A model generated the notes under the pieces. That model was not told where the DNA came from, searched no databases, and was given only the letters and a program-made list of their open reading frames with translations. From the sequence record MN850588.1: DNA of 38,200 nt. One strand, given 5' to 3'. The stretch is from Escherichia phage sortregn. Of this stretch, positions 1,538 to 37,481 are shown in pieces (positions within the stretch are counted from its first letter, which is position 1; each line of letters begins with the position of its first letter). A program made the position numbers and the translations under genes.

Positions 1538-3580
1538 TTAAAAACCCTCATTCATGAATACTTTGTTAGTGATAACGTCTTTACCCTTGCCGATCTTCCG
1601 GTGGGTAACTTTCAGTGGGGCCATGAAGTACGGCGCGAAGGCGAGGACCTCCTGGGGCGTCCGTAGCTTCTTGATGTCGGCCCGTTTCTTTCCGTCCAGT
1701 ACGTGCTTAAGGATCCCATTGTGGAGCCATTCCTTTTTCGCCTGTGGGCTATCGCTACCGGGCCAGAATACTTGCCACGCCACGAACTGATCGCCGTCCT
1801 TCTCCAACTCGTACCGGAAGGCGATCCCCCCAGTCCCTCGCGCCAATTCCAGACGGAAGCCCCTCACGTTGTAGTAGTCGTCCCTGCTGTACGTGGTCCG
1901 GCTTAAGTTCTTGTTCGGATCTACGAGCGAGTTCCCGCAGCAGCGGCAGATCCTGGCTACGATGTCGTTTTGTGCGCCGCATCCCTTCTGTACCACCTTC
2001 CGCCCGCTGGAGTCCTTCCAGTCGTCGCAGGTGATGAACTGGAAAAAGTGTTCGCAGCGTTCGCCAGTGTCGGGATCGACGTAGCGGCAGCGTCGGGCGT
2101 GTTTGCCGTTTAGCGTCGGGTGGCCCGCCTTGCGACACTTCGGACAGTCTAACTCTAATTCTCCTTTGCTCTCGTCTGCGCTGTGCTGGTATGCCTCCAG
2201 CAGCGGGGAGAAATACAGGGATCCGAGTTCGTCAAGCGTCCCGGCATAGTCGAGGACCAGGTGATCCTCCTTCGTCACCCCGGCGGCGATGTGGAACGGC
2301 TTAAGGATGCGCATACCACGGCCTAAAAGCTGGGTTAGGAGCGTGAGGGATCCGATCTTCCGCAGTATCACGGACGTGTCCCAGAACGGGACGTTAACGC
2401 CAGTCGTTAGGGCGTTAACCTGGAATATAAATTTGATCTCCCCGGTATTGGCGCGGCGCAAAATGTCCATGCGCTTCTTGCCCGTCGTGTCGTCCGTGAT
2501 GATGGCGTAAGGCGTACCAGGGGGAAGGGCCTCCGCCGCCTGTTTGCAGTGTCTCACGCCCGCACACGTCACTAACACGCCGTTCCTGTGCTGGGCGATG
2601 GCGTATACCTCCGCCATGATCTCATGCGTGAGCTTTTTGTCCTTAAGGATCGCCTTTTGCATGGCGTCCATTTCGGCGTCCGTGAACTCCTTAATGCCAT
2701 CCTCGCCGGACGATCGCCACTGGTCGAGGTTGTAGTGGAGATTGGAGATCCCGAAGTGAGTCGGAACAACCGCGCCGACGCTTACCAGGTATTCCGTCGA
2801 GATCTCGCATACCTTCTTACGCCAAAATCCGGGCTGTTCGAGGTCTGGCTGGATGATGGACTCCACGCCACGGTATGGCGTCCCGGTGTAGCCAATAATG
2901 CGGAGTTCCTTCCCGTAGACCTCGCGGGCGCGTTGCTGGAATGTGCGGATAATGATCGTATAGCTGGAGCGACCCGCCTCGATCATCTCCTCGTAAGTCT
3001 CGCCCTTGTGCTCGCCGATAATGGTCGGCTCGTCGAAGCCGTCCAGGATGATCTCCCCGGTTTTCTCGTCCCGCAGGTACTCCGGGACCACGCGCTCCTG
3101 TGAGCGGATCAGGTCCTCAATGTTGACGTGATGGCATTCATCGATCAGCAGGAACAGCGGCGCGTAATGGGCGAGTGCCTGACCTGGGCGGAGTCCTCCG
3201 ATCACTGTACCCTCGGAGCCGACCACGATCGGGAAGTGTGCAGACTTGCGGCCCAGGCTGGCGCAGTAGATCGAGGAGTTCACGCCGAAGTTTTTCAACT
3301 CCTCGAAGTCCTGATCGATGATCTCCCCCTGGCGGGACAGGATCATGGCAGGGAAACCCATATCCCTGATCCGGCGGGCCAGCATGGAGATCATGATGGT
3401 TTTACCCGCACTCACGGCGGCGTCCACAATGACCGGGCCAGGATAGCGACGGATGGCCTCCGCGCAAGCCTCATACGCGACGAACTGGTGATCGTATGGT
3501 GTAACGGGCATATCTCCCAGGGCGCGGAGAATCGCGTCCCGGTCGAGCGCTTCGATCTGTTTCTCCAATGTCATTAACAT
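1538..3580 (-). CDS. SF2 (DEAD/DEAH-type) DNA helicase with C-terminal Zn-ribbon region
   Basis: 680 aa. Walker A VSAGKT, DECHH box, helicase C-terminal half, Cys-rich segment CPKCRK...CRYVD...CRCCGN. AAGGGA RBS. Confidence 0.9.
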   Translation of the reverse strand: MLMTLEKQIEALDRDAILRALGDMPVTPYDHQFVAYEACAEAIRRYPGPVIVDAAVSAGKTIMISMLARRIRDMGFPAMILSRQGEIIDQDFEELKNFGVNSSIYCASLGRKSAHFPIVVGSEGTVIGGLRPGQALAHYAPLFLLIDECHHVNIEDLIRSQERVVPEYLRDEKTGEIILDGFDEPTIIGEHKGETYEEMIEAGRSSYTIIIRTFQQRAREVYGKELRIIGYTGTPYRGVESIIQPDLEQPGFWRKKVCEISTEYLVSVGAVVPTHFGISNLHYNLDQWRSSGEDGIKEFTDAEMDAMQKAILKDKKLTHEIMAEVYAIAQHRNGVLVTCAGVRHCKQAAEALPPGTPYAIITDDTTGKKRMDILRRANTGEIKFIFQVNALTTGVNVPFWDTSVILRKIGSLTLLTQLLGRGMRILKPFHIAAGVTKEDHLVLDYAGTLDELGSLYFSPLLEAYQHSADESKGELELDCPKCRKAGHPTLNGKHARRCRYVDPDTGERCEHFFQFITCDDWKDSSGRKVVQKGCGAQNDIVARICRCCGNSLVDPNKNLSRTTYSRDDYYNVRGFRLELARGTGGIAFRYELEKDGDQFVAWQVFWPGSDSPQAKKEWLHNGILKHVLDGKKRADIKKLRTPQEVLAFAPYFMAPLKVTHRKIGKGKDVITNKVFMNEGF

Positions 3581-3590
3581 TGTTTATCCC

Positions 3591-3620
3591 TTGTAATATC
3601 ACTAAAGCATGATTTATAGT
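3591..3620 (+). promoter_or_regulatory. sigma70-like promoter candidate for the rightward early operon
   Basis: TTGTAA (3591-3596), 18-nt spacer, TATAGT (3615-3620), in the 65-nt divergent gap between the helicase and primase genes. Confidence 0.4.
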
Positions 3621-3645
3621 AACCGGGAAATAACCGGAGGGCAAT

Positions 3646-4464
3646 ATGGCGATCTACAAAAAAGAGGACGTTCTCGCGGCGATGCCCGGCAAATGGGAAC
3701 AGGCGCTCCTCGATCTTTGTGGCTGGGACCGCAAGGCGTTTAACGGCAATCATCAACCTTGCCCGATCTGTGGCGGGACGGACCGCTTTCGCTGGGGCCA
3801 TAAGCAACAGACGAAGAAGGCGGAGGGCTTCGGCTACTGTTCCGGCTCCTGTGGCGGCGCTCGTGATGGCATGTTTTGGTTCATGACCAGCCGATCGCAG
3901 CCGTTCAACGAGGCGATCAACGACCTGGGCGACTGGATAGGCGGACTCACCCCGGAGAAGCGGGAAACCATCGTCAAGGAGGCGCGGAAGTATGCCCGCC
4001 AGCAGGATAAGCCCGCGCAGGACTGGGAACTCACCCCGGAGGACGTGGACAAGATCATGAGCAAAGGCACGATGCGCGACGGATTCCTGTATGTTCCATG
4101 CGCTCGTCCACTGGGGGGATCCCTGGGGCCGTGGTGCAACGTGGCGAAGATCGGCTCCGACAGGTCCGTGGTGTTTGCCGCTGGTGGCCCGACGTGGGGC
4201 GCGGTAGGTCTGATCCACCCAGTGCCAGACGCTCCGGTGTATCTGGTGGCGGATCCGGTCCATGCGGTGAACGTGGCGGCGCGAGGGGAGGCGGAGGTCT
4301 GGCTTACGTTCCGGCCTATGAACGCGGTCCAGGCGTCGGCGATATATGACGGCGATCGGGAGATCCGGTTCGTCTACACTGACCCGGACGAGGTTTTCCT
4401 GTACGGCTACGAGAGGACGGGGAGGCCATGCGTCGGCGGGCATCTTGCCGGGGCGTTCGGGTAA
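3646..4464 (+). CDS. DNA primase-like protein (Zn-ribbon + Toprim-like)
   Basis: 272 aa. HQPCPICGGTDRFRW matches the primase-helicase zinc-binding motif (P4 alpha type). C-terminal VYLVADPVHAVNVAARGE is Toprim-like. GGAGGG RBS. Confidence 0.7.
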   Translation: MAIYKKEDVLAAMPGKWEQALLDLCGWDRKAFNGNHQPCPICGGTDRFRWGHKQQTKKAEGFGYCSGSCGGARDGMFWFMTSRSQPFNEAINDLGDWIGGLTPEKRETIVKEARKYARQQDKPAQDWELTPEDVDKIMSKGTMRDGFLYVPCARPLGGSLGPWCNVAKIGSDRSVVFAAGGPTWGAVGLIHPVPDAPVYLVADPVHAVNVAARGEAEVWLTFRPMNAVQASAIYDGDREIRFVYTDPDEVFLYGYERTGRPCVGGHLAGAFG

Positions 4465-4489
4465 AAAAAAAGGCCCCGCACGAGGGGCC
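4463..4489 (-). terminator. intrinsic-terminator-like hairpin oriented for leftward transcription
   Basis: A9 run (4463-4471), then GGCCCC-GCACGA-GGGGCC (4472-4489). On the minus strand this reads as a hairpin followed by a U9 run. There is no T-run on the plus side. Confidence 0.5.
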
Positions 4490-4542
4490 AGTGGGCGCGA
4501 CCGATACCAGCGGGCGCTAAAGCAATGGTGAACAGTCAACAA

Positions 4543-5274: not shown

Positions 5275-5856
5275 ATGATTATTTATGCACCAGTAAGCGC
5301 CTTACGCGCTCACCAACTGACCAAAGGCCAGCAGGACGTCCGCTATTACCTGAACGCGATCCACTTCATCGGCAACCGGATCCGCACGTCTAACGGTCAT
5401 GTTTGCATGGAAAGCACCCATAAGCTCGTCAACGCGCCGGAGGAGGGGATCATCCTCTCAATCTCCACGCCACCGACTGGGCGGATCTTCTCCGCCGTGA
5501 TCGACACGGACGCCGGGATCGTGTACTGGCTGGACATTCCGGCAGATAAGCCGAAGGACCTCGAAGAAGTGGACCACAAAAAGGCCCGCGTCGCTGTGGG
5601 GACCGTGGACATTGTGGAGGCCAATTATCCGAACGTGGACGCACTCCTGAACAAGGCCCGCGAGAACTCGAAGGCCGTCCACGAGATCGGCGTGGCGACG
5701 CCTTACCTCGGAATGATCGAGAAGCTGGCGAAGAAGTTCGGGATCAAGATGCCTTTTGCGAAACTGAACTTTAACGGCGCAGCGGAGCCGATCCGCGTGA
5801 ACCTGACCACGCCGGACGGCGAGGCCACCCTGATCATTATGCCCGCGAGAGTGTAA
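5275..5856 (+). CDS. truncated DnaN (beta sliding clamp) homologue
   Basis: 193 aa. GQQDVRYYLNAIHF..RTSNGHVCM resembles the E. coli DnaN domain II start (..HQDVRYYLNGMLF..ATDGHRLAV..). ANYPNVDALL resembles GRFPDYRRVLP, and C-terminal ATLIIMPARV resembles AAYVVMPMRL. No domain I equivalent. GAGAGGA RBS. Confidence 0.6.
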   Translation: MIIYAPVSALRAHQLTKGQQDVRYYLNAIHFIGNRIRTSNGHVCMESTHKLVNAPEEGIILSISTPPTGRIFSAVIDTDAGIVYWLDIPADKPKDLEEVDHKKARVAVGTVDIVEANYPNVDALLNKARENSKAVHEIGVATPYLGMIEKLAKKFGIKMPFAKLNFNGAAEPIRVNLTTPDGEATLIIMPARV

Positions 5857-5858
5857 GC

Positions 5859-6083
5859 ATGGGACCTTATCAGACCTACCGCTGGAAATATTTCGTCCGT
5901 TGCGTGGCGGACGAACTCATGGATCGTAAACTGGTGGCCTCCCGCGAGGAGGCCGAGCACTTCGCCGAAGATCTGGAGGATTCGTTCGCGGAGGACTACG
6001 ACCCGCGTCCGATCTCAGAATGGCGAGCTATCGCGAAGAAAGACGCAGACGACTACGAGAAGGATCTGAAACGTGAAGCATAA
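5859..6083 (+). CDS. hypothetical acidic protein
   Basis: 74 aa ORF starting 3 nt after the upstream stop. Acidic (EDLEDSFAEDYD), no recognisable motif. Confidence 0.6.
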   Translation: MGPYQTYRWKYFVRCVADELMDRKLVASREEAEHFAEDLEDSFAEDYDPRPISEWRAIAKKDADDYEKDLKREA

Positions 6084-6825
6084 GGCGATCTTTTTATTCA
6101 ACCTGACCCGGATCATGGTGGACAAGTGGCTGGACGCTGGCGTGGAATGCTGGATGTATGACGGGCAGCACGAGCCAGGGATCCACCCAGACGCCGACGA
6201 GCCGAACCTGATCCGAGTGGGCCGGATGTTCGACGCGGACAACTCAATCAGGGAAGCGGCTCGCATCGCCGAGGAAGTCGGCCCCGGCGTGATCTTCGTG
6301 GCGTCCTTCGCTGAATGCACCGATCTAACCTGTACCGGGGCGCGATGGTGGGAAGCGAAGCGCAAGAAGGATCCGCGCTTCCAGGAGAAGGCCGTGGCGC
6401 TGGCTAAGATGGTGAAGCACGTCGCGGAATTTTGCAGCGTGGAGAACGGCAGCTTTGAACCCGCTTCGACGGTCCCCTGGATGCTGGAGAATCCGAAGAT
6501 CTCCCGACTCTCCACGATGTGGCGACCTTGCGATCACTGGTTCCACCCCTACAACTTCGGCGGCTACTTGCCGGAGGATCACCAGCATAGCCTCTACCCG
6601 GAGATCTACCCGGCGCGGGACGCGTACCCGAAGCAGACGGGGATCTGGTGCGGTGGCGGCTTCAAGATGCCGGAACACAAGAACGTCCCGGCGGTTAAGG
6701 ATAATCCCGGATGGTCGAAGCTGGGCGGATCTTCGACCCGAACGAAGAACATCCGCAGCGCCACCCCCGAAGGCTTCGCCGTCGCCGTGTTTATCTACAA
6801 CGCCACCCCGATCGCTCCATTCTGA
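6073..6825 (+). CDS. C5-cytosine-methyltransferase-like protein (divergent)
   Basis: 250 aa; GTG start overlaps the upstream stop (GAAGGA RBS). SFAECTDLTCTGARWW (cf. PPCT.L..SG.RW), WMLENP (ENV-like motif) and C-terminal RSATPEGFAVAV. This is the pattern of a phage family usually annotated DNA cytosine methylase. No canonical FxGxG. Confidence 0.5.
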   Translation: MKHKAIFLFNLTRIMVDKWLDAGVECWMYDGQHEPGIHPDADEPNLIRVGRMFDADNSIREAARIAEEVGPGVIFVASFAECTDLTCTGARWWEAKRKKDPRFQEKAVALAKMVKHVAEFCSVENGSFEPASTVPWMLENPKISRLSTMWRPCDHWFHPYNFGGYLPEDHQHSLYPEIYPARDAYPKQTGIWCGGGFKMPEHKNVPAVKDNPGWSKLGGSSTRTKNIRSATPEGFAVAVFIYNATPIAPF

Positions 6826-7411: not shown

Positions 7412-7796
7412 AGTAACAGCGAAGATTATCGGATGGACTGACGAGCAGGACGCGGAACTGGTTCGCCTGGCTGGAACCATGCCAGCGCCGGACCTGGCGA
7501 AGAAGATAAAACGCAACTTCCGCCAGATGCAGGTCCAGGCGTCGAAGCTGGGGATCTCCCTGGCGTACCGCAGGACGTACACGCAATGGACAGCGGAGGA
7601 GGACCGGAAGCTGGTCCGCTTCTGGGAGGATAAACTGACCCCGGAGGACGTGGTGGAGATCGCAGAGACTACGGGGATCTATGAAGTGACCCGCGACGAA
7701 CTGACACACGAGCACGTCGCGACCTGGCTCGACAAATCGCGCCCGGCAGTACGCGGACGCCTGGCAAAATTCAAGAAAGAGGGGAAAATAGCATGA
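7404..7796 (+). CDS. tandem Myb/SANT- or GcrA-like HTH DNA-binding protein
   Basis: 130 aa; GTG start with AAGGGGG RBS. Two repeats: WTDEQDAELVRLAG..LAKKIKRNFRQMQVQASKLGISL and WTAEEDRKLVRFWE..SRPAVRGRLAKF. The first resembles the GcrA N-terminus (WTDERV..L..LW..GLSASQIA..LGGVTRNAVIGKVHRLGLS) as recalled. Confidence 0.6.
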   Translation: MGKVTAKIIGWTDEQDAELVRLAGTMPAPDLAKKIKRNFRQMQVQASKLGISLAYRRTYTQWTAEEDRKLVRFWEDKLTPEDVVEIAETTGIYEVTRDELTHEHVATWLDKSRPAVRGRLAKFKKEGKIA

Positions 7797-7990: not shown

Positions 7991-8788
7991 ATGGGGAATT
8001 TTTGGACCTACCACGAGAACACCCAGCGCGGCGGGATCGAACTGGGCCGAGTAATCGACCCGGCGAAAGCCTCGCGCCCGGTGATCTACCTAGAATCAGA
8101 TCCGCCAGGTCTGGACGCGGCGAAGGTTTCCGCCTTCATGCCGTACTACGTTTACACTCCGATGTCCTTCACTCAGGACTTGCCGGGAGTGGCTGGTGGC
8201 GATGCCGCCGCGACCTTCGTCCCTGGGGGGAGCACGTTCTCCGCGACGGTCGAAGTCGCCGGAGGTCAAGCGCCGTTTACTTATCAGTGGTACAAGTTTA
8301 GCGGCGGAGTCGGAACGGCGATCACGCTGGCGCAGAACGCCACGGCCCAGTCGAAGGTATTCCAGATCACCAACTACACCGCAGCGGCTCAACCCGGATC
8401 CGGTAACGGTGATTGGTATGTTGTCGTAACCGACGCGACCGGGGCCACGCTCCAGTCTCAGCGCATCCGCACGAAACAGGCGATCGCCTACTCCGTCAAC
8501 CTACCGACGACCGACACCTGGACCGTCGGGACCGCCGACGCCTTAACCGTCACCGTGAACGCGGCTACGGGCCTTGCGCCGTATACTCATGAATGGTTTA
8601 AGGATGGCGTTTCTCAGGGGCCGGGGACGTCGAGCGGGACGGGGAACGCGACCTCCACGCTATCGAAGGCAAGCCCGGCAGCGGGCGACGCTGGCGTGTA
8701 TTATTGCATTTCCACCAGCGCCAACACGAACCCGCCGAAAACCATCCAGAGCATTTCTTGCACTGTAACCGTTAACCCGGCAGCATAA
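7991..8788 (+). CDS. Ig-like domain protein (two I-set-like repeats)
   Basis: Start ATG 7991 preferred (AGAGAGGA RBS; the 7952 ATG has no RBS). Ig-like repeats ..APFTYQWYKF..GDWYVVVTDATG.. and ..APYTHEWFKDG..DAGVYYCISTS..CTVTV. Confidence 0.75.
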   Translation: MGNFWTYHENTQRGGIELGRVIDPAKASRPVIYLESDPPGLDAAKVSAFMPYYVYTPMSFTQDLPGVAGGDAAATFVPGGSTFSATVEVAGGQAPFTYQWYKFSGGVGTAITLAQNATAQSKVFQITNYTAAAQPGSGNGDWYVVVTDATGATLQSQRIRTKQAIAYSVNLPTTDTWTVGTADALTVTVNAATGLAPYTHEWFKDGVSQGPGTSSGTGNATSTLSKASPAAGDAGVYYCISTSANTNPPKTIQSISCTVTVNPAA

Positions 8789-9038: not shown

Positions 9039-9558
9039 ACTGCTGACGCTCCACGGCGTCGTAATTCACTTCGCAGACCTCCCCGGCGGTGATCGCCTTC
9101 TCCGCTATATCAGCATACCGTCGAGCAGCTTCTCCAGTCCCTCGGAGCAAGTCGGAATACATTCGGGCGGTCTTTTCCCCTGACGCCCTTCCGAGGGCAG
9201 CGGTCTGATCAGCGGCTTCGCGTCTGGCGTTCTCTTTGGCGGCTCGTTCGAGCAACCGATCAAGGGCAGCACCAGCAGCAGCAGAAGCGGCGCGAGCTTT
9301 TGCGGCCTGTTCGTTCGCATATTTTACGGACTCCTCGCGGGCAATGGCCCGGCCTTGTTCAATGATACGGGCGGCGGCTTGTGCGTTCGCTTCCTGGGTG
9401 GATTCCTTCGCGATCCGAGCATTGTCGCGAGCGGTCCAGCCCCGGTCCGTCCAGGCCGAGCCAGCCCAGAAAGATCCCCCCAGCGCCAGCAGCACGACAA
9501 CGACGAGCAGCAGCGATCGCCAGTGAGTCGAAAGGAACACGCGGAGGGCGGCGATCAT
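9037..9558 (-). CDS. Rz: i-spanin (Rz-like)
   Basis: 173 aa. N-terminal TM (WRSLLLVVVVLLALGG), Ala/Glu/Arg-rich coiled-coil periplasmic part. ATGA overlap with the endolysin stop. Contains the embedded Rz1-like ORF. Confidence 0.85.
   Translation of the reverse strand: MIAALRVFLSTHWRSLLLVVVVLLALGGSFWAGSAWTDRGWTARDNARIAKESTQEANAQAAARIIEQGRAIAREESVKYANEQAAKARAASAAAGAALDRLLERAAKENARREAADQTAALGRASGEKTARMYSDLLRGTGEAARRYADIAEKAITAGEVCEVNYDAVERQQ
9105..9320 (-). CDS. Rz1: o-spanin (Rz1-like lipoprotein), embedded in the i-spanin gene
   Basis: 71 aa in the +1 frame inside Rz. Signal peptide with lipobox LPLIGC, then a Pro-rich mature part (EPPKRTPDAKPLIRPLP). Confidence 0.85.
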   Translation of the reverse strand: MRTNRPQKLAPLLLLLVLPLIGCSNEPPKRTPDAKPLIRPLPSEGRQGKRPPECIPTCSEGLEKLLDGMLI

Positions 9559-11400: not shown

Positions 11401-11419
11401 CTTCGACTCCTGGGTGGAT

Positions 11420-12420: not shown

Positions 12421-12851
12421 CTCTCTTTCCTCATGGCTTGTTTGCATTGTAAAGCGGCGAGGGCCATCTCCGGGCCAATCTCGACGCCTGGGGGGAACCC
12501 TGTTTCCGTGGTCGCCAGCTTCGAACGATCCACCTTAAGGTCCCGTAATTGTCCGGCCCGTTCCATTTGTCCGGCGTGTCGGCAGAGATCCAGCAGCTTC
12601 TTACGATCGACGCCGGGGCAGTCCCAGAACGCCGCGAATATTTGCTCCGATGGTCGCAGGGCGCAAAAAGCATTGCGCGTTTCAACCGTCGGCAGATAAG
12701 GATCCATTCTCCCCTGTTCTATCGCCTCAATGATCGAGGGATCGGTGGAGCGGATCTTCTCCAGAATCTCCAGGCGGCGCTCCATTGCCGTCTTGCGTTT
12801 AACCGTGGCCCGAAGTGGGGCGGCAGGTTTTGAATCATCAAACAGTGACAT
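12417..12851 (-). CDS. hypothetical protein, first gene of the leftward operon
   Basis: ORF 12417-12977; ATG 12851 preferred (GGAGGG RBS). The upstream ORF part overlaps promoter-like AT-rich DNA. 144 aa. Confidence 0.65.
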   Translation of the reverse strand: MSLFDDSKPAAPLRATVKRKTAMERRLEILEKIRSTDPSIIEAIEQGRMDPYLPTVETRNAFCALRPSEQIFAAFWDCPGVDRKKLLDLCRHAGQMERAGQLRDLKVDRSKLATTETGFPPGVEIGPEMALAALQCKQAMRKER

Positions 12852-12876
12852 ATTGCCCTCCGTTGTGTGGAAATCA

Positions 12877-12904
12877 ATATTACATAACGTTACCATGATG
12901 TAAA
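12877..12904 (-). promoter_or_regulatory. sigma70-like promoter candidate for the leftward operon
   Basis: On the minus strand: TTTACA (12904-12899), 16-nt spacer, TAATAT (12882-12877). The spacer contains GGTAAC (complement of 12889-12894). Confidence 0.5.
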
Positions 12905-12975
12905 GCCCAACCGTGATAATAATTGACTTTACAGTGGTAACAAGGGCGGGTAACATTGCGACCAGTAACGCAACC
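12889..12975. repeat. GGTAAC/GTTACC hexamer cluster (candidate operators or iterons)
   Basis: GTTACC 12889-12894, GGTAAC 12936-12941 and 12949-12954, aGTAAC 12964-12969. GTAACGCAACC (12965-12975) resembles GTTACCGCAACC at 14713-14724. Confidence 0.55.
12916..12943 (-). promoter_or_regulatory. second leftward promoter candidate
   Basis: On the minus strand: TTGTTA (12943-12938), 16-nt spacer, TATTAT (12921-12916). The -35 overlaps GGTAAC 12936-12941. Confidence 0.4.
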
Positions 12976-12991
12976 ATGAGGTGATTAAACA

Positions 12992-14656: not shown

Positions 14657-14670
14657 CCGGGGCGTGTGTT

Positions 14671-14811: not shown

Positions 14812-14824
14812 GGGGAAAGTAGCG

Positions 14825-14872: not shown

Positions 14873-14911
14873 CAAAATCCCCGCCAAATAATCATTGATA
14901 AGTGATGCGAA

Positions 14912-15554: not shown

Positions 15555-15619
15555 CGCTTGCATGATGTACGCCCCGGCGATATGCTGGGGCCGTTTCCAC
15601 CCACGAGAGAGATCGAACA

Positions 15620-22647: not shown

Positions 22648-22690
22648 GATGGGCGAATACATCGCGTATGCAACAAAACGAGGATCTACG

Positions 22691-25070: not shown

Positions 25071-25589
25071 ATGTCACGCAATAAGACCGCGATCGCCGTA
25101 GCTATGACCATGATTTACACCCGCCCCGCTATCATCGCCGGGGAAAATATCAAAGGTCTGGAAGTCCTGACCCGCGACCACACGGACGGCCCCTACGCCC
25201 GCGCCTCGTTCCCGGATGAAGAAGCCGCCGAGCGTCTGGAGTCTGGCTTCTGGGTGGATCATCCGGTCAAACTCTCCACGCTGGACAAGGCGATCGCCGA
25301 AGCCGCTCAGAAGGAAGCGGAGCAGGACAAAAAGGACGCCGACAACCAGAAAGCCGAGCAGGTGAAGAAGGAGCAGGACGAGAAGGTGGAAGATAAGGCC
25401 CCAGAATCGACCGCTACGGCCTCCGAGCAGAAAGACGACCCGAAGGCCACCGAAGCGGAAAAAGCCGCAGAGAGCGGCGCAGAGGCTCAGGAATCCACCC
25501 AGGAAGCGAAGGCCGACGAATCCAAGCCGAAAGACGGCGAGAAGGTAGACGGCGCGAAAGTTCCGACTGATAAGAAGGCGAAGAAATAA
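25071..25589 (+). CDS. hypothetical protein with Lys/Glu/Ala-rich disordered tail
   Basis: ORF 24948-25589; ATG 25071 preferred (AGAGGA RBS, downstream of terminator and promoter). 172 aa: a folded N-terminal ~75 aa, then a polyampholyte tail ending KKAKK. Confidence 0.6.
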   Translation: MSRNKTAIAVAMTMIYTRPAIIAGENIKGLEVLTRDHTDGPYARASFPDEEAAERLESGFWVDHPVKLSTLDKAIAEAAQKEAEQDKKDADNQKAEQVKKEQDEKVEDKAPESTATASEQKDDPKATEAEKAAESGAEAQESTQEAKADESKPKDGEKVDGAKVPTDKKAKK

Positions 25590-27480: not shown

Positions 27481-27495
27481 TGCACTGGGGGGATC

Positions 27496-29142: not shown

Positions 29143-30464
29143 TGGCTCAATTATTAGGCGGCGGCGGTTCGGATCCGGGCGATCTGTGGAATAACCTCCA
29201 GAACATCCAGGCCGCAGGGACTAACACGCTCCAGAACATCGGGCAGATTCAGGCTAACACGGCGCAGCAGATCCAGAACCGACAGCAGGGGATGGCGATG
29301 CAAGCCGCAGCAGCCCAGCGCGACCAGATGGCGGCGTTTAATCAGGACTGGCAAGCAGCCCAGGGCGACCCGTCCAAGATTTCGGAACTGGCCTACAAAT
29401 ACCCGACCCAGATCGAAGCGCTCCAGAAGCGTCTCGGACTGGTGGATGATATTCGCCGCCAGCAGGGATCCCAGCTTGCAAGCCAGGCCGACGTCGCGAT
29501 CTCGCAGGGGCCGCAGATGGCCCAGCAATTCGTCCAGCAGAACGCCCCGGCGCTCCAGGCGCTGGGAATTGATCCGCAGGTGGCCTACCAGACGGCGGCG
29601 CAGGACCCGGAGGCGTTTAAACGCTCCGTTCAAGCGCTCCACCTGGCGAGCAATACCAGCAAGGATCAACTGGACTACTCGAAAGAGATCATGAAGAACC
29701 AGACCACGATCAGGGGCCAGGACCTCGACGCGGCGGCGAAGGCGGCAGACCGTAACCTCCGTTACATCGGGCTACAGAATGACCGCCTGAACACGCAGAT
29801 CGCGCAGGAAGGGAACGACATCAAACGCGCCCAGATGCAGCAGACGCTACAGAAGGCGCAACAGGACAGCCTGAACACGAAACGCGATTTTCTCCAGACC
29901 TACGACAAGACGGTGGCCCCGATCGACACGTCGCTGGAACTGGCGAAACAGCTATTAAACCGTAAGGATCTGGGCTTCGTGACCGGGATTAACGGCTACG
30001 GAAACCGCTTCTGGTCGGCGGCTACTGGCGGCGGCGATAACACGGCGGAGATCATGCAGACCCTGGATCAGCTTAAGAGCCAGGCGCGACTCGCCGGGAT
30101 GGAGTCCTTGCGCGGGACTGGCTCCGTCACCGAGAAGGAAGGCGAGGCGGCGGCTAATGCCCTGCTGAACGCTAACCCCGGACAAATGAGCGAGGATCAG
30201 CTTAAGGCGGTGATCCAGCGTTATGTCTCCAGCCTGGAGAAGGGCAAGGCAGCGCTGGAGAAGAACCAGGGCGGGCGAGTCCAGGCCTACCGCCAGGAGA
30301 TCGCACGAGACGACGCCAAACAGGAAGCAGTCGGGCAATTGACCGCTGGGGGGATCCCCGCGCAGAACGCGCAAGCGGCTATTAATTACCTGATGCAGAA
30401 CCCTACCCCTAGCGTTAAGGCGCAATTTAAGGAAAAATACGGTTTCTTACCGGAGGGGCTTTAA
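29142..30464 (+). CDS. ejection/internal virion protein, gp20-position
   Basis: 440 aa, Q/A-rich helical. Synteny with P22 gp20. TAATG overlap with the upstream stop. Confidence 0.55.
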   Translation: MAQLLGGGGSDPGDLWNNLQNIQAAGTNTLQNIGQIQANTAQQIQNRQQGMAMQAAAAQRDQMAAFNQDWQAAQGDPSKISELAYKYPTQIEALQKRLGLVDDIRRQQGSQLASQADVAISQGPQMAQQFVQQNAPALQALGIDPQVAYQTAAQDPEAFKRSVQALHLASNTSKDQLDYSKEIMKNQTTIRGQDLDAAAKAADRNLRYIGLQNDRLNTQIAQEGNDIKRAQMQQTLQKAQQDSLNTKRDFLQTYDKTVAPIDTSLELAKQLLNRKDLGFVTGINGYGNRFWSAATGGGDNTAEIMQTLDQLKSQARLAGMESLRGTGSVTEKEGEAAANALLNANPGQMSEDQLKAVIQRYVSSLEKGKAALEKNQGGRVQAYRQEIARDDAKQEAVGQLTAGGIPAQNAQAAINYLMQNPTPSVKAQFKEKYGFLPEGL

Positions 30465-33400
30465 ATGGCGAACATCTTCGACCAATTTGATCAGAACATG
30501 CCGAAAAATGCGACGGCGCTCCCTAATCAGATTCCAAACCAACCCGGATCCACTGGATCCGGTTATGCTGATCTGGTGGAGAGTGCCGGGGCGAAGTGGG
30601 GGATCCCTGCTGGCCTCATGACCCAATTAGTGGGGAAAGAGTCCAGCGGCAACCCGTCCGCCGTCTCCTCGAAAGGCGCAACCGGGCTAACTCAGGTTAT
30701 GCGCGGGACCGCCGAGGATATGGGCTACAACTGGGACGCGCTGAAAAACGATCCAGCATTACAGGCAGACGCGGGGGCGCAGTACCTTTCCCGCATGTAT
30801 CAGAGGTATGGAGACTGGGGGACCGCTCTCCAGGCTTACCATGACGGCCCCGGCAACGTAGACAAACAACTGGCGGGACAGGCAGAACCTGGCCCGGAGG
30901 GGCGTCAATATGTGGATGATCGGTTTAATCAATGGACTGGGCGAGGCGCTGGCGACAATGGCAGCGGCGAACCTACTCAATACGCAACCAGCGCACGATC
31001 TCCGAGTGCTGGCGGTAATGTTTTCGACCAATTCGGGGACTACCAACCCCCAGCAGCAGCCGCAGCCGACGGAGCCGGACCAACCGGAGCCGATCAACAA
31101 GTCGCAGCCGTCGCCGCTGGCAATGCACCTAATCAAGCGGGATCTGATGGCGCACAAGGGGCGGCAGCGCCGAACGGTAACGGAGTCCAGAGCGGAGCTA
31201 ATCAGCCCGGACAAACCGATCCAAACGAAGAAGCCGCCCGAAACTGGGAACAGTTAGGCCAGACCGTTCTCCATTCGCTGGATCAGGGCGCTCGCGGCGT
31301 GGCTCAGACGGGGATCGACCTGCTGAACACGCCGATCTCGCTGGCGAACATGATCTCCAATGCCGTGACCGATGCGGGCAAATGGGCCGGAGTCGTGGAC
31401 CAGGACACCCAAGCGCCGACCATCACGCCTGGGGGGATCCCTGGTCTCGCGCCTACCGACAAATACGCGCAGATCGGGACCGTGATCGGGGATATGCTCG
31501 CGCCACTGCCTGGCCCTCGTAAGGCTCAGGCGGCGACCGAACTCCTCGGACTGGTCCGTGAATCGCCGGACGTGGCTACCTTCTCGACTCGCCTCGCTGA
31601 TGCCGTGCAGAACTGGATCGCGGCTCCGGCGGCTCGTGCCGTTCCCGGCGCGGTGGCCGCTGGACGTGGGGACCCGGAGGAGACGCTGACGAACATCGCG
31701 TTAGCTCCCGCTGGCGAGGCTGTGGGCCGCGCTGTTATCGGTGGCGCTGGTAGGCTGTGGAACGCTCTCCGGGGCGAAGCTGGGGCCGCTGGTGGCGCTG
31801 GTGCAGATGCAGCGGCAGACGCCGCAAGATCCACCCAGGCGTCCGAGGCGGGCATTTCCGACGCGGTGGCTCGTGACGCGAGCAAGTTCCGACTGACGCC
31901 GGATCGCACTGTGCAGGGCGCGAACGGTGAAACCCTCCGCGCTTCTGACGATGCGATCGATCTGGCGAACATGGCGGACGTGGACAAGAAGGTCCTCAAG
32001 ACGGCCCGCGATCTGGGACTGGAGGACCAACTGACCCCGGCGGCTTATGCGCGTGACACCAATTTCCGCAGCACGATCCAGCAGCTTGTAAGCCGTAAAG
32101 GTTCCAACCTGGAGACGCAGCAGCTAAACGGGATCGCCCGCTTAGGCGAGAAAGCCGACGAGCTGATCGACAGCATGAGCAGCATGAACGCGCAGACCAT
32201 TGATCAGGCGTTTACCGCCCGCACTCGTGCAGTGATCGACGGACTGGGCGACGAGGCGGAGAAGGCTTATAACGCGATCGCGGCGAAGATCCCGCGTAAC
32301 GCCGAAGTAAGGCCGGACAGTACCGTGGACTATCTGACGGCGAAAGCCGACGAGTTAGGCGGCGACGCGTACCTGTCAACGGCAGAGCGTAAGGCGCTGG
32401 ACTGGATGGCTCCGAAGCCTGGCAAGGTGGACCCTGTGACGGGCCTCCCGGATCAGGACGTGGCGACGATCCCGACTTACTCCCGACTGGACACGCTTCG
32501 TAAGCAGGTAGGCCAGGCGCTCAATAAAAAATCCGGCCCGTTCAAGGACGAGGAGACGGGAGCGCTTAAACAGCTTTACGCCCGCCTGACGGACGACCAG
32601 GAGAAAGTCGCGGCCCAGTACGGCGCGGCGGACGACTGGAACGTGGCTAAACAGCTTGTTAAACGCCGTAAGGACCTGGAGACGATCGCCCAGGACGCGC
32701 TCGGAAAGAACCTTACCGACTCGATCACCGGGAAAGTGCAGAACGCGATCCTGAATCTGGGTAAAAAGGGCGGCAGCGCGAAGGACTGGGACCGTCTGAT
32801 GGCTGCAACCCCGGAGAGCCTGAAACAGGACGTAGTGGCTAACGCGCTGGAGCGTACCCTGGGCGCACGTAGCGCCCGCGATACCTTCGCGATCCCCGGC
32901 TTCGTGGACTGGTACAAGACCGCCCAGGCAAACGGGACGTTAGGCAACGTCATGAAGCATTTACCCCGCGATCAGCGTGTGCGCCTGATGCAGGTTTACC
33001 GCGTGGCGAACGCCATCGACCGGGCGAAACGCTTTACCACGACGACGGGATCGATCTCCGACTTCGTGAAGCGCTTCGACGATCCTAGCGCTGGCGGCGT
33101 CTTGTCCAAGCTGTACGGCGCGGCGGGCTGGCTGGGTAAACATGCGGCGGCGTTCTATGCAGCAGGTCCGGCGGGTAATGCGGCCCTCTCAGCGGCTCAG
33201 GCAGCGCGGGGCGCTCGCGTCCCTCGTTCGGTGCTGGCGGACAATTTGCTTTCGTCCACGAACTTCTCCAAACTTATGCAAGCCGCAGCCGCGCAGAGTT
33301 CCGGGAAGCTAACCCCAGCGGGCCGGACGTTCGTCCGCGAGGCCGAGGAAGCGGCGGCAAACTCCCCAGAGTGGCGGGCCTTGTATGAGGCATTCACCCC

Positions 33401-33531: not shown

Positions 33532-35925
33532 ATGTCCGACTTAGACACGCTTTCGGCGGTTTCTATGCCGTCCGTCCCATTCCTCCGCATCGATCGCTTT
33601 GCGGCGGTGGCGGACGGTGGGCTTTACGTGGGCCAACCCGACACGGACCCGACGCAGCCGGAGAACCAGGTCCCGGTCTACATCCTGAACGAGGACGGAA
33701 CCCTGACCCAGATCGAGCAGCCTGTGAAGATCGGGATCGCGGGCTATCCGGTTTATAACGGGCAAGTCGTCAAGGTCCTGACGCAGCCGGGGACCTCTCT
33801 CGACGTCCGCGACCGGAACAACGTCCAGATGTTCTACTTCGACAACCTGACGAAGTACGACCCGGAACAGATGTGGAAACTACTCCAGAGTTCGACGGGC
33901 TGGGAGTTCGTGGGGACCACTTACGGCAACGTGAAACAGGCCATTCAGGGCTATATCACGCCGTGGAACTTCGTCGGCAAGCCGGAATATGCGACCGAGA
34001 CGGAAGCGATTCAGGCCATGTTTGACTATGCGAAGGCGAATAACCTCCCGATCCGCGCTTTCAACTGGGAAGGCACGACCGCCGGGATCGTCACCGCAGA
34101 GAACATCACGATCGTCGGCGGGATCTGGAACCTGGTCGGCAATAACGCAAAGTTCACTAATTGCGTGGTTTTTGATGGGATCTGGCGTCGCCGCTCTATC
34201 TGGTCAAAAGGGACTTACTTCGAGCGTTGCCGCTTCGAACAATGCCGCATCCTTCACGCGTCGGACGACGTGCTGATCCTTAACTCCAAGTTCTCCGGCA
34301 AGGTAGGCAGGAACGTGGCCTCCATCGTCATGCAGGGGAACCAGGTCGAAGGCGACAACAACAAGGACTATTTCGGGCGTTTACGCGTCGAGAACTGCGA
34401 GTTTAATGATATTTCTGGGGGGATCTTCCAGCAGGGCGGGCACTTCAAAATCACCCGCATGATCTTGCGTAACCTGACGTTTACGAACCTGGACTCCGAC
34501 GCGATCGAGCTTAACGTGGTGAATGATGGCTCCTTTACCGAAGGATGCACGATCGAGAACATCGAGATCTATAACTCTAACGCCACGCTTGCGAACTCCA
34601 ACTTAGGGATCGGGATCGGTGTGGCTGGTGCTGGCCCGTACTCGTGGGACGCGCCGGAAACCAACTACGCGAAAAACTTCGTGATCCGCAACGTGACCGC
34701 CGTCGGCGTTCGCCAGTGTGTCCACGTCGAGGTCGGATCCGACTTCGTGATCGAGAACGTGAACGTAAACCCGGACGCCAACAAGTCGATCGGGACTGGC
34801 CTGATCGTCTCCGGCGTTTATATCGCTGGTTCGAAGAACTTCACGATCAACGGCGTAAGCGGAACCCCTGTTCCGTCCGCGACTGTGCCGATCACGGACA
34901 TTCGTATGATCTGCCTGGTGCCGGGACCTACTGACCAATCCGCCCAGCAGTACAATACGCTTTGCCGTGACTACACGATCCGAAACGTGGACGCAAAGGG
35001 CGCATGGGTGCAACTGTGGGTAGACGCTTACCCCGGCTATGGTTCGATCCAGCCACACAGCAACCACGCGACGATCGAAAACGTGGACTGTTATCGCTTC
35101 TCGTGCTTCGGCGTGGGGACCGTGACGACGCTCCGAAACATCACTTGCACCACGTCCGACTGTTTAGGCGATACCTCCACCGGGGGCGGCTATAAAAACC
35201 AGGCGGGATCCGGTACGCTGTTATATATCTTCACTAAATCGGTGCTGAATATTGACGGCTTCTACTCGGAGACTCCGGGCGAGATCTACCGCAAGCCGCG
35301 CTACATGTACACCAATGTGAAGAACTGCAACATTCAGGTAGATCAGGGCGCTAACTTCGACGGACGCGTGGGCGCTCAACTGACGCCGATCACGAAGGCT
35401 TACGCGCCGCAGATCACGGCCCACGGTGGATATGGGAACTTCTTCCCGCGTGGTCGGGAGTTCGACGTGGGCGATCAGGTCTTTGTCTACGACTACGGCA
35501 GCAACGACCCGGCTAATGGTCCTGGGGGGATTGTGGCGCTCAAGGCTTACGTGGTGACGGGCTTCGGCGCGTACTACCCGGCGAACACTGGCGCGTCCAC
35601 CCTCCGCGCAGCAGCAGCGGGCGCTAAACGCGTTTACTGTGCGCTGACGCCGACCGGGACCAGTACCGGATCGCCGTGGCTGTACACTGACACGCTGACC
35701 GCCGGGACGCGTATCAAGATCACGACCAGCGTCGGACAGGAAACCGTGACGATCACCCGCGCACCGTTCCAGCCGCTGAACGATAACGACAACACGGACA
35801 ACCCGGCGAACACGTCGTTACCTATCGCGATCGAGTTCACCCCGGCGCTACAGGGTAGCGTGGCGGCGAACGCTCGCTTTACGATGGCTTACCCCATCAC
35901 CACGCGACCGCCGATCTCCGCATAA
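33532..35925 (+). CDS. tailspike with P22 gp9-type head-binding domain
   Basis: ORF from 33520; ATG 33532 preferred (GGAG 5 nt upstream). FAAVADGGLYVGQPDTDPTQPENQVPVYILNEDGTLTQIEQPVKIGIAGYPVYNGQVVKV vs gp9 [60 protein letters not shown]. The remainder is beta-helix-like. Confidence 0.9.
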   Translation: MSDLDTLSAVSMPSVPFLRIDRFAAVADGGLYVGQPDTDPTQPENQVPVYILNEDGTLTQIEQPVKIGIAGYPVYNGQVVKVLTQPGTSLDVRDRNNVQMFYFDNLTKYDPEQMWKLLQSSTGWEFVGTTYGNVKQAIQGYITPWNFVGKPEYATETEAIQAMFDYAKANNLPIRAFNWEGTTAGIVTAENITIVGGIWNLVGNNAKFTNCVVFDGIWRRRSIWSKGTYFERCRFEQCRILHASDDVLILNSKFSGKVGRNVASIVMQGNQVEGDNNKDYFGRLRVENCEFNDISGGIFQQGGHFKITRMILRNLTFTNLDSDAIELNVVNDGSFTEGCTIENIEIYNSNATLANSNLGIGIGVAGAGPYSWDAPETNYAKNFVIRNVTAVGVRQCVHVEVGSDFVIENVNVNPDANKSIGTGLIVSGVYIAGSKNFTINGVSGTPVPSATVPITDIRMICLVPGPTDQSAQQYNTLCRDYTIRNVDAKGAWVQLWVDAYPGYGSIQPHSNHATIENVDCYRFSCFGVGTVTTLRNITCTTSDCLGDTSTGGGYKNQAGSGTLLYIFTKSVLNIDGFYSETPGEIYRKPRYMYTNVKNCNIQVDQGANFDGRVGAQLTPITKAYAPQITAHGGYGNFFPRGREFDVGDQVFVYDYGSNDPANGPGGIVALKAYVVTGFGAYYPANTGASTLRAAAAGAKRVYCALTPTGTSTGSPWLYTDTLTAGTRIKITTSVGQETVTITRAPFQPLNDNDNTDNPANTSLPIAIEFTPALQGSVAANARFTMAYPITTRPPISA

Positions 35926-36388: not shown

Positions 36389-36420
36389 GTTCGGCTCCTT
36401 CATTGGTTAACGTCTCCGTG

Positions 36421-36449
36421 ATTATTCATTAAAGCGTTATGCAAATCAA
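36421..36449 (-). promoter_or_regulatory. sigma70-like promoter candidate for the HTH/small-protein pair
   Basis: On the minus strand: TTGATT (36449-36444), 17-nt spacer, AATAAT (36426-36421). TAACG...CGTTA inverted repeats flank the -10. Confidence 0.55.
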
Positions 36450-36451
36450 AA

Positions 36452-36892
36452 TTATTCTGGGTTAAGCCCTTCACCGTTAACCAGATGCCACTCTTTATGA
36501 TGCTTCTCGCAGAGCCAGCGCACATCTAACGGGCGATCGTAGTCGTCATGATGTCCCACTACCTTCTCCGCCCCGCAGACCTCACACGGCCCCCTGTGGA
36601 GTTCTCCAGTCTTTAGCGCGTAATAGACCATGCTATGAGCGCGGCGCTTCTTTGGATGCCTGGCATGATAGGCTGATTTTGTAGCGTTCGATCGCTCCCG
36701 GCCTTCTCCATGCTGATATTTTTTAGCGTGACAGATGATCCTCTCTTTTCTTTCTGGATCGCTGTGGTAATAACTCCGGTAATTCTTGTTCTTGCACTGG
36801 CGACAGCGTGGATCCCTTCCGTCCTTCCGGCGCTTGTCCTTGTGGAACTCCTCCGGCGGCTTTGATTCGTGGCAAATTGTGCATTGTTTCAT
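36452..36892 (-). CDS. HNH endonuclease
   Basis: 146 aa. N-terminal CTICH..CRQC zinc motif and C-terminal CEVCG..VGHHDDYDRPLDVRWLCEKHHKEWH. Confidence 0.85.
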   Translation of the reverse strand: MKQCTICHESKPPEEFHKDKRRKDGRDPRCRQCKNKNYRSYYHSDPERKERIICHAKKYQHGEGRERSNATKSAYHARHPKKRRAHSMVYYALKTGELHRGPCEVCGAEKVVGHHDDYDRPLDVRWLCEKHHKEWHLVNGEGLNPE

Positions 36893-36935
36893 CTCGTCGT
36901 CTCCTGGGAGGATCGGCCCCGAAGGGCCTCACCCG

Positions 36936-37481
36936 TTAAAACGGAATATCATCGTCGAAATCTTGAGGCGGCTCGTTAGACGCTCCAGAAGCGCCACCAC
37001 GAGGCGCAGACCCAGACCCGCTACCCTTGCCAGGATTTTGCGAGTTCGTCGCGCCACGGCCCGGAGAATTGCGAGAATTGCCACCGCCGCCGGAGTGGGT
37101 AGGTCCACTCCCCCCAGACTGACCGCCTTCACGCTTCCCGCCTAACATTTGCATCGTGCCGCCGACGTTCACGACGACCTCCGTCGTGTACTTCTCGACG
37201 CCTTGCTGGTCCGTCCATTTGCGCGTCTGGAGCTTGCCTTCGATGTAGACCTGGGACCCCTTGCGGAGATACTCTCCGGCGACCTCCGCCAGCTTGCCCC
37301 ACAAAACGACGCGATGCCATTCCGTGATCTCCTTCATCTCGCCCGTTTGCTTATCGCGCCAGGACTCGGAGGTGGCTACGGTGATATTTGCCACCGCGCC
37401 GCCGTTCGGCATGTATTTTACTTCGGGATCCTGGCCCAGATTGCCGACCAGAATCACCTTATTAACGCCGCGTGATGCCAT
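36936..37481 (-). CDS. ssb: single-stranded DNA-binding protein
   Basis: 181 aa. [22 protein letters not shown] fold, Gly-rich linker, acidic tip DFDDDIPF. Confidence 0.97.

Follow-up and report, generated by a model that had tools for sequence, protein, structure and literature searches.

A strict nine-base word dispersed evenly and in facing pairs along the genomes of Escherichia phage sortregn and its relatives

RESULTS

Gene content of the window

We analyzed a stretch of 38,200 nucleotides from Escherichia phage sortregn (sequence record MN850588.1), a Murrayvirus (PMC7552041), for a dispersed nine-base word, CTGGGNGGA, in which the base at position 6 (N) is free; the whole stretch is referred to below as the window. 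The exoVIII gene spans both ends of the window, so that the record is a circular permutation. The virion module is P22-like, and no DNA polymerase gene is found in the genome. The replication and recombination module encodes a zinc-ribbon primase, a RadD-like SF2 helicase with an overlapping VRR-NUC gene, ExoVIII, Erf, SSB, and RusA, as well as Dam, a second methyltransferase-like protein (MTase2), an HNH/EndoVII-like nuclease, and a RepA-like AAA helicase, whose gene adjoins an origin-like noncoding region. Salmonella phage Lumpael is 98.5% identical to the window over the aligned part.

Definition and enrichment of the word

An initial annotation of the sequence had reported 15 copies of the variant with N = G, CTGGGGGGA. 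All of them were recovered at the same positions, 11 on the plus and 4 on the minus strand, and nine are the full 11-mer CTGGGGGGATC; dinucleotide shuffles contained 0.46 ± 0.73 copies (maximum, 3). The reading frames and encoded peptides of these copies and the intergenic location of those at 22573 and 27485 were also as described. The motif is thus real but was incompletely described, as CTGGGGGGA is one variant of a wider word. In a scan that allowed one mismatch to CTGGGGGGA, nearly all variants differed at base 6, and we therefore consider CTGGGNGGA the real unit. It is present in 35 copies (N = G in 15, T in 9, C in 7, and A in 4), compared to 2.15 expected from base composition (Poisson P = 5e-30). 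The eight fixed bases are strict: their 24 single-base neighbors total 45 copies, with 0 to 8 each and a mean of about 2, which corresponds to background. Such a sharp, digital pattern typifies recognition by an enzyme, as opposed to a degenerate operator. In the flank, base 10 is T in 65 to 69% and base 11 is C in 56 to 66% of the copies, resulting in CTGGGNGGA(T)(C/T); neither a flank consensus beyond T at +10 and C/T at +11 nor a second motif co-occurring within 150 bp of the copies was detected.

As had been annotated, every run of six G residues outside positions 14685 to 14849 lies inside a motif copy. Taking both strands, there are 20 G6/C6 runs, versus 33 expected under codon shuffling. 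Fifteen of these runs are motif copies and five are located in the noncoding stretch at 14.7 kb; they are otherwise absent from coding DNA. Since such runs are avoided elsewhere in coding DNA, the frequent N = G reflects a positive preference.

The codon-aware null model proposed in the annotation was run by shuffling synonymous codons within each gene. It gave 3.4 ± 1.1 copies of CTGGGGGGA, a value that includes about 3 unshuffled intergenic copies, and 15 copies were reached in none of 500 shuffles, so that the result named there as a refutation was not obtained; for CTGGGNGGA it gave 10.7 ± 2.2 copies with a maximum of 19 in 500 shuffles. These data bear on the idea that the word is a functionless by-product of amino acid or codon usage, mutation bias, or shared ancestry. 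The codon null is well above 2.15, so that Gly-Gly and Trp-Gly with the preferred CTG and GGN codons do contribute. Nevertheless, we regard this explanation as extremely unlikely: (i) the 35 copies exceed the maximum of all shuffles; (ii) 31 copies are inside genes and 4 are intergenic, with every frame and both strands in use; and (iii) the sites are retained above same-phase controls, and their pairing and even spacing (see below) do not follow from codon usage. As had been proposed, the word is a DNA-level signal and not a protein motif; it is not a codon artifact either. The T-ending codon preceding Gly-Gly, which had been noted as well, was seen, but it results from the CT of the motif when this is read in frame 1.

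Facing pairs and even spacing

Each minus-strand copy is directly preceded along the window by a plus-strand copy, which results in 12 convergent pairs (Table 1). Convergent gaps (n = 12) span 81 to 705 bp and divergent gaps (n = 12) 539 to 2,585 bp; 12 convergent gaps of ≤720 bp were never obtained in 5,000 shuffles of the strand labels. Pairing was observed in all ten genomes of the phage family (P ≤ 0.0012 in nine and 0.03 in C130_2); these genomes are related, so that the tests are not independent, and the more distant Skarpretter, STP9, and C130_2 are included, all with a positive result. Overall, pair spacing ranges from 46 bp, the closest facing pair, to 790 bp. Several unpaired plus-strand copies have a one-mismatch partner at pair distance, and the Lumpael region corresponding to 27485/28274 contains an exact plus-then-minus pair (30415/31204, 789 bp apart).

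Individual pairs persist in the relatives. The primase gene holds a pair in 10 of 10 family genomes (spacing of 93 to 150 bp), and the pair in the spanin gene has kept its 81-bp spacing in 10 of 10 while N changes. Both arms of the 36904/37109 pair are kept in six relatives, and the 36904 arm is also present in Skarpretter, in which 37109 is outside the alignment. The copy at 36904 overlaps the ribosome-binding site (AGGAG) of the nuclease gene on the minus strand; the N = A of this copy is constant in seven relatives.

When a pair is counted as one station, the coefficient of variation (CV) of station spacing is 0.44 in the window, an evenness that was never reached in 5,000 random placements; gaps are 3.0 kb at most. 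The CV amounts to 0.31 to 0.48 in all ten family genomes (P ≤ 0.004). Each strand alone is even too, with mean gaps of 1.66 kb (plus) and 3.2 kb (minus). Short pairs analyzed as hairpins folded no better than shuffles (z of -1.6 to +0.7), and 1 of 12 pairs has arms with complementary N bases, so that neither the stability nor the complementary changes of a hairpin were found. An Rfam search matched no families.

Table 1. Copies of CTGGGNGGA in the window and genes encoding candidate readers. Distances are between the start positions of the two arms of a pair.
Feature	Position	Strand	Distance (bp)	Context and remarks
Single site CTGGGCGGA	808..816	+		exoVIII gene, antisense; kept in 6 relatives
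RadD-like SF2 helicase (1538-3580) and VRR-NUC nuclease (1069-1551), alternative candidate readers	1069..3580	-		Overlapping genes, common to T1-like phages
Pair: 1368(+) CTGGGTGGA, 1825(-) CTGGGGGGA	1368..1833	+, -	457	VRR-NUC and helicase genes
Single site CTGGGCGGA	3184..3192	+		Helicase gene, antisense
Primase, DnaG/T7 gp4 type (zinc-binding domain and TOPRIM-like core), candidate reader	3646..4464	+		29-38% identical to primases of T1-like phages and KLB22
Pair: 4111(+) CTGGGGGGATC, 4214(-) CTGGGTGGATC	4111..4222	+, -	103	Inside primase gene
Pair: 5477(+) CTGGGCGGATC, 6182(-) CTGGGTGGATC	5477..6190	+, -	705	
Single site CTGGGCGGATC	6721..6729	+		In relatives N = C, A, G; other bases constant
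Single site CTGGGAGGA	7622..7630	+		
Single site CTGGGGGGA	8223..8231	+		Hoc-like gene; possible degenerate partner CTGGGCCGA(-) at 8868
Pair: 9394(+) CTGGGTGGA, 9475(-) CTGGGGGGATC	9394..9483	+, -	81	Spanin gene
Single site CTGGGTGGA	11410..11418	+		Intergenic
Pair: 12488(+) CTGGGGGGA, 13053(-) CTGGGCGGATC	12488..13061	+, -	565	Straddles divergent gene junction 12977/12992
Single site CTGGGGGGATC	15329..15337	+		Possible degenerate partner GTGGGTGGA(-) at 15596
Pair: 18240(+) CTGGGAGGATC, 18323(-) CTGGGGGGA	18240..18331	+, -	83	Large terminase gene
Pair: 20342(+) CTGGGGGGA, 20832(-) CTGGGAGGA	20342..20840	+, -	490	Portal gene
Pair: 22573(+) CTGGGGGGATC, 23075(-) CTGGGTGGA	22573..23083	+, -	502	Plus arm intergenic, minus arm in scaffold gene
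Single site CTGGGCGGA	24269..24277	+		Coat gene; kept in Lumpael only, lost in other eight relatives
Pair: 25250(+), 25494(-), both CTGGGTGGAT	25250..25502	+, -	244	Sole pair with equal N in both arms
Single site CTGGGGGGATC	27485..27493	+		Abuts needle-gene ATG; partner at 28274(-) is ATGGGTGGATC in the window
Single site CTGGGGGGATC	30346..30354	+		
Pair: 31429(+) CTGGGGGGATC, 31830(-) CTGGGTGGATC	31429..31838	+, -	401	
Pair: 34415(+) CTGGGGGGATC, 34939(-) CTGGGCGGA	34415..34947	+, -	524	Tailspike gene
Single site CTGGGGGGA	35522..35530	+		Possible degenerate partner CTGCGCGGA(-) at 35603, 81 bp away
Pair: 36904(+) CTGGGAGGATC, 37109(-) CTGGGGGGA	36904..37117	+, -	205	Plus arm intergenic, minus arm in SSB gene

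Orientation relative to genes

The word had been described as co-oriented with transcription. This is the case for the N = G variant, of which 11 copies are co-oriented, 2 are anti-oriented, and 2 are intergenic and aligned with the adjacent genes, but not for the full motif, with 17 co-oriented, 14 anti-oriented, and 4 intergenic copies; the earlier observation arose because just the N = G variant had been examined. It is the free base that tracks gene orientation, since copies with N = T show the opposite distribution (1 co-oriented and 7 anti-oriented), and on the sense strand a purine occupies N in 24 of the 31 coding copies, compared to a background of 54%. Anti-oriented copies are conserved as well as co-oriented ones. 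The strand split is 23 plus to 12 minus; it is 16:9 in blocks of plus-strand genes and 7:3 in blocks of minus-strand genes, and to either side of the origin-like region (14.7 kb) the plus bias is the same.

A signal acting at the level of RNA or transcription, such as a pause, an internal Shine-Dalgarno-like element, or a nuclease site, would agree with the orientation of the N = G copies and with the overlap of the copies at 27485 and 36904 with ribosome-binding regions. We consider it very unlikely, given that the full motif is nearly balanced, with equally conserved anti-oriented copies, that the corresponding word of phage T1 (see below) is split into 16 co-oriented and 13 anti-oriented copies, and that neither Rfam matches, nor folding of the short pairs beyond that of shuffles, nor arms complementary at N (1 of 12) were observed. 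The pause site that had been suggested is likewise a poor fit with a motif that lacks orientation bias.

Conservation and distribution

The annotation had proposed to inspect positional conservation in related genomes, and the relatives do retain the sites. The motif is the top word of Murrayvirus and Sortsnevirus genomes. No 9-mer is commoner than CTGGGGGGA in Lumpael, sortsyn, IME_EC2, and Sortsne, and it ranks near the top in IME279 and Kc237 (12 to 15 copies); in the more distant C130_2, STP9, and Skarpretter it has 5 or 6 copies. Ranked by a sharpness measure, CTGGGNGGA is first in Skarpretter and second in C130_2 (16 to 18 copies). All eight fixed bases are present at 90% of the orthologous sites in sortsyn and IME_EC2, versus 48% in same-phase control windows, and at 62 to 68% in Sortsne, IME279, and Kc237, versus 17 to 26% in the controls (Fisher P of 2e-5 to 9e-9), while N changes. 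Orthologous sites thus hold the eight bases in relatives of about 75% identity, and, as judged from these alignments, the motif is under purifying selection. Words of the "AAAGACG" type in Skarpretter, STP9, and C130_2 were considered and rejected, since in the listed contexts they read as Lys-Asp codon runs and not a sharp motif. The "terminal repeat" of C130_2 carries no motif at its boundaries and one copy inside, and it showed no homology to the window.

When IMG/VR was scanned for facing pairs, high motif density was confined to members of the Murrayvirus/Sortsnevirus family; matches outside the family had 2 or 3 copies each, which is chance-like. In Escherichia coli K-12 we counted 2 copies of CTGGGNGGA versus 14 of Chi in the same 50 kb, corresponding to 0.04 per kb versus 0.9 per kb in the phage. 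The suggested role as a host Chi or RecBCD-modulating signal is therefore unlikely: the word is not Chi (GCTGGTGG), it is not enriched in E. coli, and it is restricted to one phage family. Chi itself has 7 copies in the window, versus 3.0 under the codon-aware null, and 16 or 17 copies in Sortsne and IME279, with a strand bias of 11 or 12 to 5.

Association with a T1-type replication and recombination module

Phages that share either the virion or the replication genes of the family were then compared. Sf6, which has P22-like structural genes and lambdoid replication, contains 1 copy of CTGGGNGGA, versus 0.96 expected. The siphovirus KLB22, which has the same order of replication and recombination genes and a primase that is 38% identical, contains 11 copies, versus 1.9 expected (P = 5e-6), without close pairs. 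T1 (MN153797.1) has 0 copies; the word most enriched there is CTGANTGGT (29 copies versus 1.44 expected). In T1, (i) the eight fixed bases of CTGANTGGT are strict and N is C in 14 and T in 11 copies; (ii) 16 copies are on the plus and 13 on the minus strand, with 16 co-oriented and 13 anti-oriented relative to genes; and (iii) neighbor gaps of ≤500 bp are convergent in 5 of 5 cases (P = 0.001), and stations are even (CV of 0.52; P = 0.0005). Other Drexlerviridae (tonn, Domnhall, DTL, and T145P1) contain 12 to 14 copies of CTGANTGGT; sites alignable for positional conservation of CTGANTGGT among Drexlerviridae were few.

Since CTGGGNGGA is at background in Sf6 and enriched in KLB22, and T1 has an analogous word of its own, the motif tracks the shared T1-type module and not virion or packaging functions. 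According to tblastn, only ExoVIII, VRR-NUC, the SF2 helicase, the primase, Dam, and Erf are common to the family, T1, tonn, Domnhall, and KLB22, whereas MTase2, RusA, XRE, the HNH nuclease, and all virion genes are absent from T1. Three other links were rejected, namely, those to (i) the P22-like virion and packaging genes, based on the Sf6, T1, and KLB22 counts; (ii) the RepA-like helicase (12992-14656), of which no homolog is detectable in the motif-bearing Skarpretter and C130_2; and (iii) MTase2, RusA, XRE, and the HNH nuclease, none of which is present in T1 and the last of which has homologs scattered over many phage groups. On the basis of gene content and word counts, the motif is linked to the shared T1-type replication and recombination module.

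The comparison with T1 also bears on the possibility that the copies are binding sites for a sequence-specific phage protein of architectural, partition-like, or regulatory function that bridges facing sites into loops. Inverted pairs would suit a dimer bridging half-sites, even spacing would suit genome organization, and several family-specific small proteins of unassigned role exist. However, the pair spacing of 46 to 790 bp is without helical phasing, one-mismatch variants are not enriched, which is unusual for operators, no DNA-binding protein is common with T1 despite the same syntax there, and most sites are intragenic without transcription bias, unlike stoperators. This explanation appears improbable to us.

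Another alternative is a phage-specific, Chi-like stop signal, at correctly oriented copies of which a phage helicase-nuclease or exonuclease degrading from DNA ends would halt. The copies would mark phage DNA as self, and facing pairs would leave an overlap of 46 to 790 bp for annealing by Erf/ExoVIII. Compatible with this are the eight strict bases, as in Chi, the rarity of the word in the host and its density in the phage, the occurrence of both orientations at even spacing, so that an end anywhere soon meets a site, the module with its SF2 helicase and overlapping nuclease, ExoVIII, Erf, and SSB, and a minimum pair spacing above the annealing requirement. Yet there is no known phage-encoded enzyme that recognizes a Chi-like site, and, if the polarity were that of RecBCD, facing pairs would result in a gap instead of an overlap. 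In addition, CTGANTGGT is fairly common in E. coli (7 per 50 kb), which weakens a distinction between self and nonself, and the enrichment of true Chi in Sortsne and IME279 indicates that those phages already use host Chi. Taken together, we judge this alternative unlikely.

Other sequence features

The noncoding stretch at 14660 to 14900, directly 3' of the RepA-like helicase gene, has an origin-like appearance, with AATCGG(GG) repeats (14825, 14840, and 14854), GTAAC/GTTAC repeats, an A/T-rich patch, and a C7...G7 inverted repeat at 14685 to 14703. The RepA-like AAA_25 helicase (12992 to 14656) had no tblastn match (E ≤ 1e-4) in Skarpretter or C130_2, and that of Kc237 is only 51% identical, so that the replicative helicase/initiator cassette is exchanged among these phages. 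The gene at 6073 to 6825, annotated as "DNA methyltransferase" (phrog_757), had no Pfam, NCBIfam, or PDB sequence match, and its protein has no obvious S-adenosylmethionine-binding or catalytic motif on reading, so that the methyltransferase label is putative. In Lumpael, an HNH/EndoVII-like gene that is unannotated in GenBank MK125141.1 (21802 to 22239) is 100% identical to window positions 36452 to 36892.

GATC is strongly overrepresented in the window (494 sites); the codon-aware null predicts 282 and base composition about 140. The next commonest words after the motif contain CGATCG (e.g., GCGATCGC), and a Dam methylase is encoded at 4617 to 5258. Enrichment of GATC in T1 is just 1.26-fold. 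Further words were noted in other phages. Vibrio phage K172 has the sharp word CGTGTCAT, with 16 copies versus 1.37 expected, as part of TCCGTGTCAT-like sites; GTGCTATT occurs 16 times in T1, 13 times in T145P1, and 10 times in DTL and may be a promoter-type element; a word of tonn related to it, TAGCACTT/AGTNCTATT, has 11 or 12 copies; and Klebsiella phage Domnhall has 47 overlapping G8/C8 matches, which indicate long homopolymer G/C tracts.

DISCUSSION

Initiation sites of the phage primase as the favored reading

We interpret CTGGGNGGA as a DNA-level recognition word that is probably read by a replication enzyme of the phage. Leaving aside Dam, a GATC methylase by family, the primase alone among the proteins shared with T1, tonn, Domnhall, and KLB22 is from a family known to read template sequence, by means of its zinc-binding domain (PMC2978363), and we therefore favor it. 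That the word is read by the phage primase of the DnaG/T7 type (3646-4464) as initiation sites is a tentative proposal. Both a zinc-binding domain and a TOPRIM polymerase core are encoded in the genome, and the primase is about 29% identical to primases of T1-like phages; a PDB sequence search with the primase and MTase2 returned no match. In the proposed mechanism, CTGGGNGGA(TC) would be read by an enzyme of the T1-type replication and recombination module, most likely the zinc-ribbon primase, and each copy would be a preferred primer start on the strand bearing it. Forks moving with late transcription would use the plus strand, which has a site every 1.7 kb or so, as their lagging-strand template. 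Synthesis from a site would proceed toward the 5' end of its own strand, so that a facing pair would start outward synthesis in both directions.

Several observations are compatible with priming. Priming sites would account for the strictness of the word, its link to the module, its even spacing on each strand, and its independence of transcription. Primases of this type owe their template specificity to the zinc-binding domain; E. coli DnaG initiates on d(CTG), the triplet used for initiation by DnaG of gamma-proteobacteria (PMC2978363). For the T7-like AtTwinkle, the site is 5'-(G/C)GGA-3', with a cryptic GA (PMC5737085). Both phage words, CTGGGNGGA and CTGANTGGT, begin with CTG and that of the window ends in NGGA, which is a resemblance only. 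T7 has about 26 strong priming sites, intervals of 1 to 6 kb are reported for these sites and for its Okazaki fragments, and its first sites on the two lagging strands are about 100 nucleotides apart (PMC12839067), a precedent for closely set, opposed sites. The plus-strand spacing of 1.66 kb is within this range and compatible with Okazaki fragments. The strand bias, alike in both types of gene block and on both sides of the origin-like region, fits one dominant direction around the genome.

A number of points weigh against primase sites. (i) We know of no primase of the DnaG/T7 type that needs eight exact bases; known sites are triplets with flank preferences. (ii) By analogy with AtTwinkle, the primer would start with C, and the CTG and GGA analogies would place the start at opposite ends of the word, so that at most one of them can be right. 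(iii) The 23:12 bias is not significant alone (P = 0.09). (iv) Lagging-strand priming alone would need no opposed pairing, and the primase explains the pairs with some strain. (v) The primases of tonn, Domnhall, DTL, and T145P1 are related to that of T1 (60% and 52% identity for tonn and Domnhall), yet these phages have only 12 to 14 copies of CTGANTGGT, and no comparable word was found in seszw and pIS4-A, which have related primases. (vi) Given its frequency in E. coli, part of the enrichment of CTGANTGGT in Drexlerviridae may be due to codon usage. (vii) The lineages compared for the link to the module include very few independent ones. In a broader, more speculative form that does not specify which enzyme of the module acts, phages with a T1-type module might punctuate their chromosomes with about 20 to 25 even stations, consisting of exact 9-mers that often occur as facing copies; CTGGGNGGA and CTGANTGGT would be lineage versions of one system and the stations start or stop points of DNA synthesis or resection on both strands. 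This would amount to an undescribed, sequence-programmed mode of phage DNA replication or recombination that operates at multiple sites.

Site-specific nicks as an alternative

The copies could instead be sites of site-specific single-strand nicks, as in T5, phiKMV, and tf/LUZ24-like phages, the closest documented pattern. A phage nuclease would cut at or close to each copy, in virion DNA or transiently in the course of replication or recombination. In tf, 14 nicks lie within TACT/RTGMC (PMC3517423), and WACTRTGAC, with 13 copies in Rembedalsseter, is enriched and conserved among 61 related phages that share little DNA identity, in and out of genes (PMC11780129). The window also has an enriched, frame-independent 9-mer with one degenerate position that is conserved across a family, the module supplies nucleases (VRR-NUC and the HNH/EndoVII-like gene at 36452-36892), and there is no facing pair below 46 bp, as expected if opposed nicks must avoid a double-strand break. 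Described nick motifs are on one strand only, however, in contrast to 23:12 here and 16:13 in T1, and the Rembedalsseter-type motif is reported to be unevenly spread, whereas spacing here is very even. Moreover, the HNH gene is missing from T1, tonn, Domnhall, and KLB22 and has homologs across many unrelated phages, and stand-alone phage VRR-NUC proteins are known as junction resolvases. Nicking is thus rather doubtful. Among the roles that the initial annotation had listed, recognition by a phage factor, priming, and nicking are still live, the host Chi/RecBCD signal is unlikely, and the pause site fits poorly.

If the primase or another enzyme of the module reads the sites, a large and medically used group of coliphages, including T1-like siphoviruses and these P22-like podoviruses, would fix key steps of its DNA metabolism at even, paired sites defined by sequence, which would be a new rule of genome organization. 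It would constrain synonymous recoding and genome engineering and provide an easy genomic marker for the module, and it would make a classical system directly testable, as T1 apparently has 29 unnoticed copies of its own word. Should the sites be nicks instead, a fixed geometry of nick motifs on both strands would be the first such case in a phage family and would bear on the 50-year-old question of nick function.

Comparison with known dispersed words

Our search of a literature library retrieved no paper with CTGGGNGGA or CTGANTGGT, and the genome papers on these phages mention no motif. The word can be compared to five known types of site. (i) The stoperators of cluster A mycobacteriophages are 13 to 14 bp long, mostly intergenic, and co-oriented and are bound by the immunity repressor. 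Both kinds of element are dispersed as tens of asymmetric copies, but here 31 of 35 copies are intragenic without orientation bias, so that the co-oriented, mostly intergenic arrangement of stoperators was not found. (ii) ssiA and ssiB of the RSF1010 oriV are an inverted pair of priming signals on opposite strands for a plasmid-encoded site-specific primase, formed by 40-nucleotide hairpins at one origin; the window contains about 12 9-mer pairs, for which no hairpin evidence was obtained. (iii) Chi and KOPS (GGGNAGGG) are, like the present word, exact eight-base words (KOPS with an internal free base), polar and dispersed. These host words are enriched and skewed in the chromosome, whereas the present word neither equals host Chi nor is overrepresented in the host but is phage specific, with a 2:1 skew, and paired. 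(iv) Primase sites, such as E. coli d(CTG), T7 5'-(G/T)2GTC-3', and AtTwinkle 5'-(G/C)GGA-3', are also strand-specific template words; known ones specify 3 to 5 bases and are not conspicuously overrepresented, in contrast to the eight strict bases and the pairing seen here. (v) Nick motifs (TACT/RTGMC and WACTRTGAC) similarly have about 9 nucleotides with a degenerate position, are more than 10-fold enriched and family conserved, and occur in and out of genes at about 13 to 35 copies per 40 to 46 kb (PMC3517423, PMC11780129); they are one stranded and reportedly uneven, whereas the present word is even and on both strands, with obligatory face-to-face minus-strand copies. The element thus resembles known dispersed words for enzyme recognition but differs from each of these in that it combines the use of both strands, obligatory facing pairs, and even spacing.

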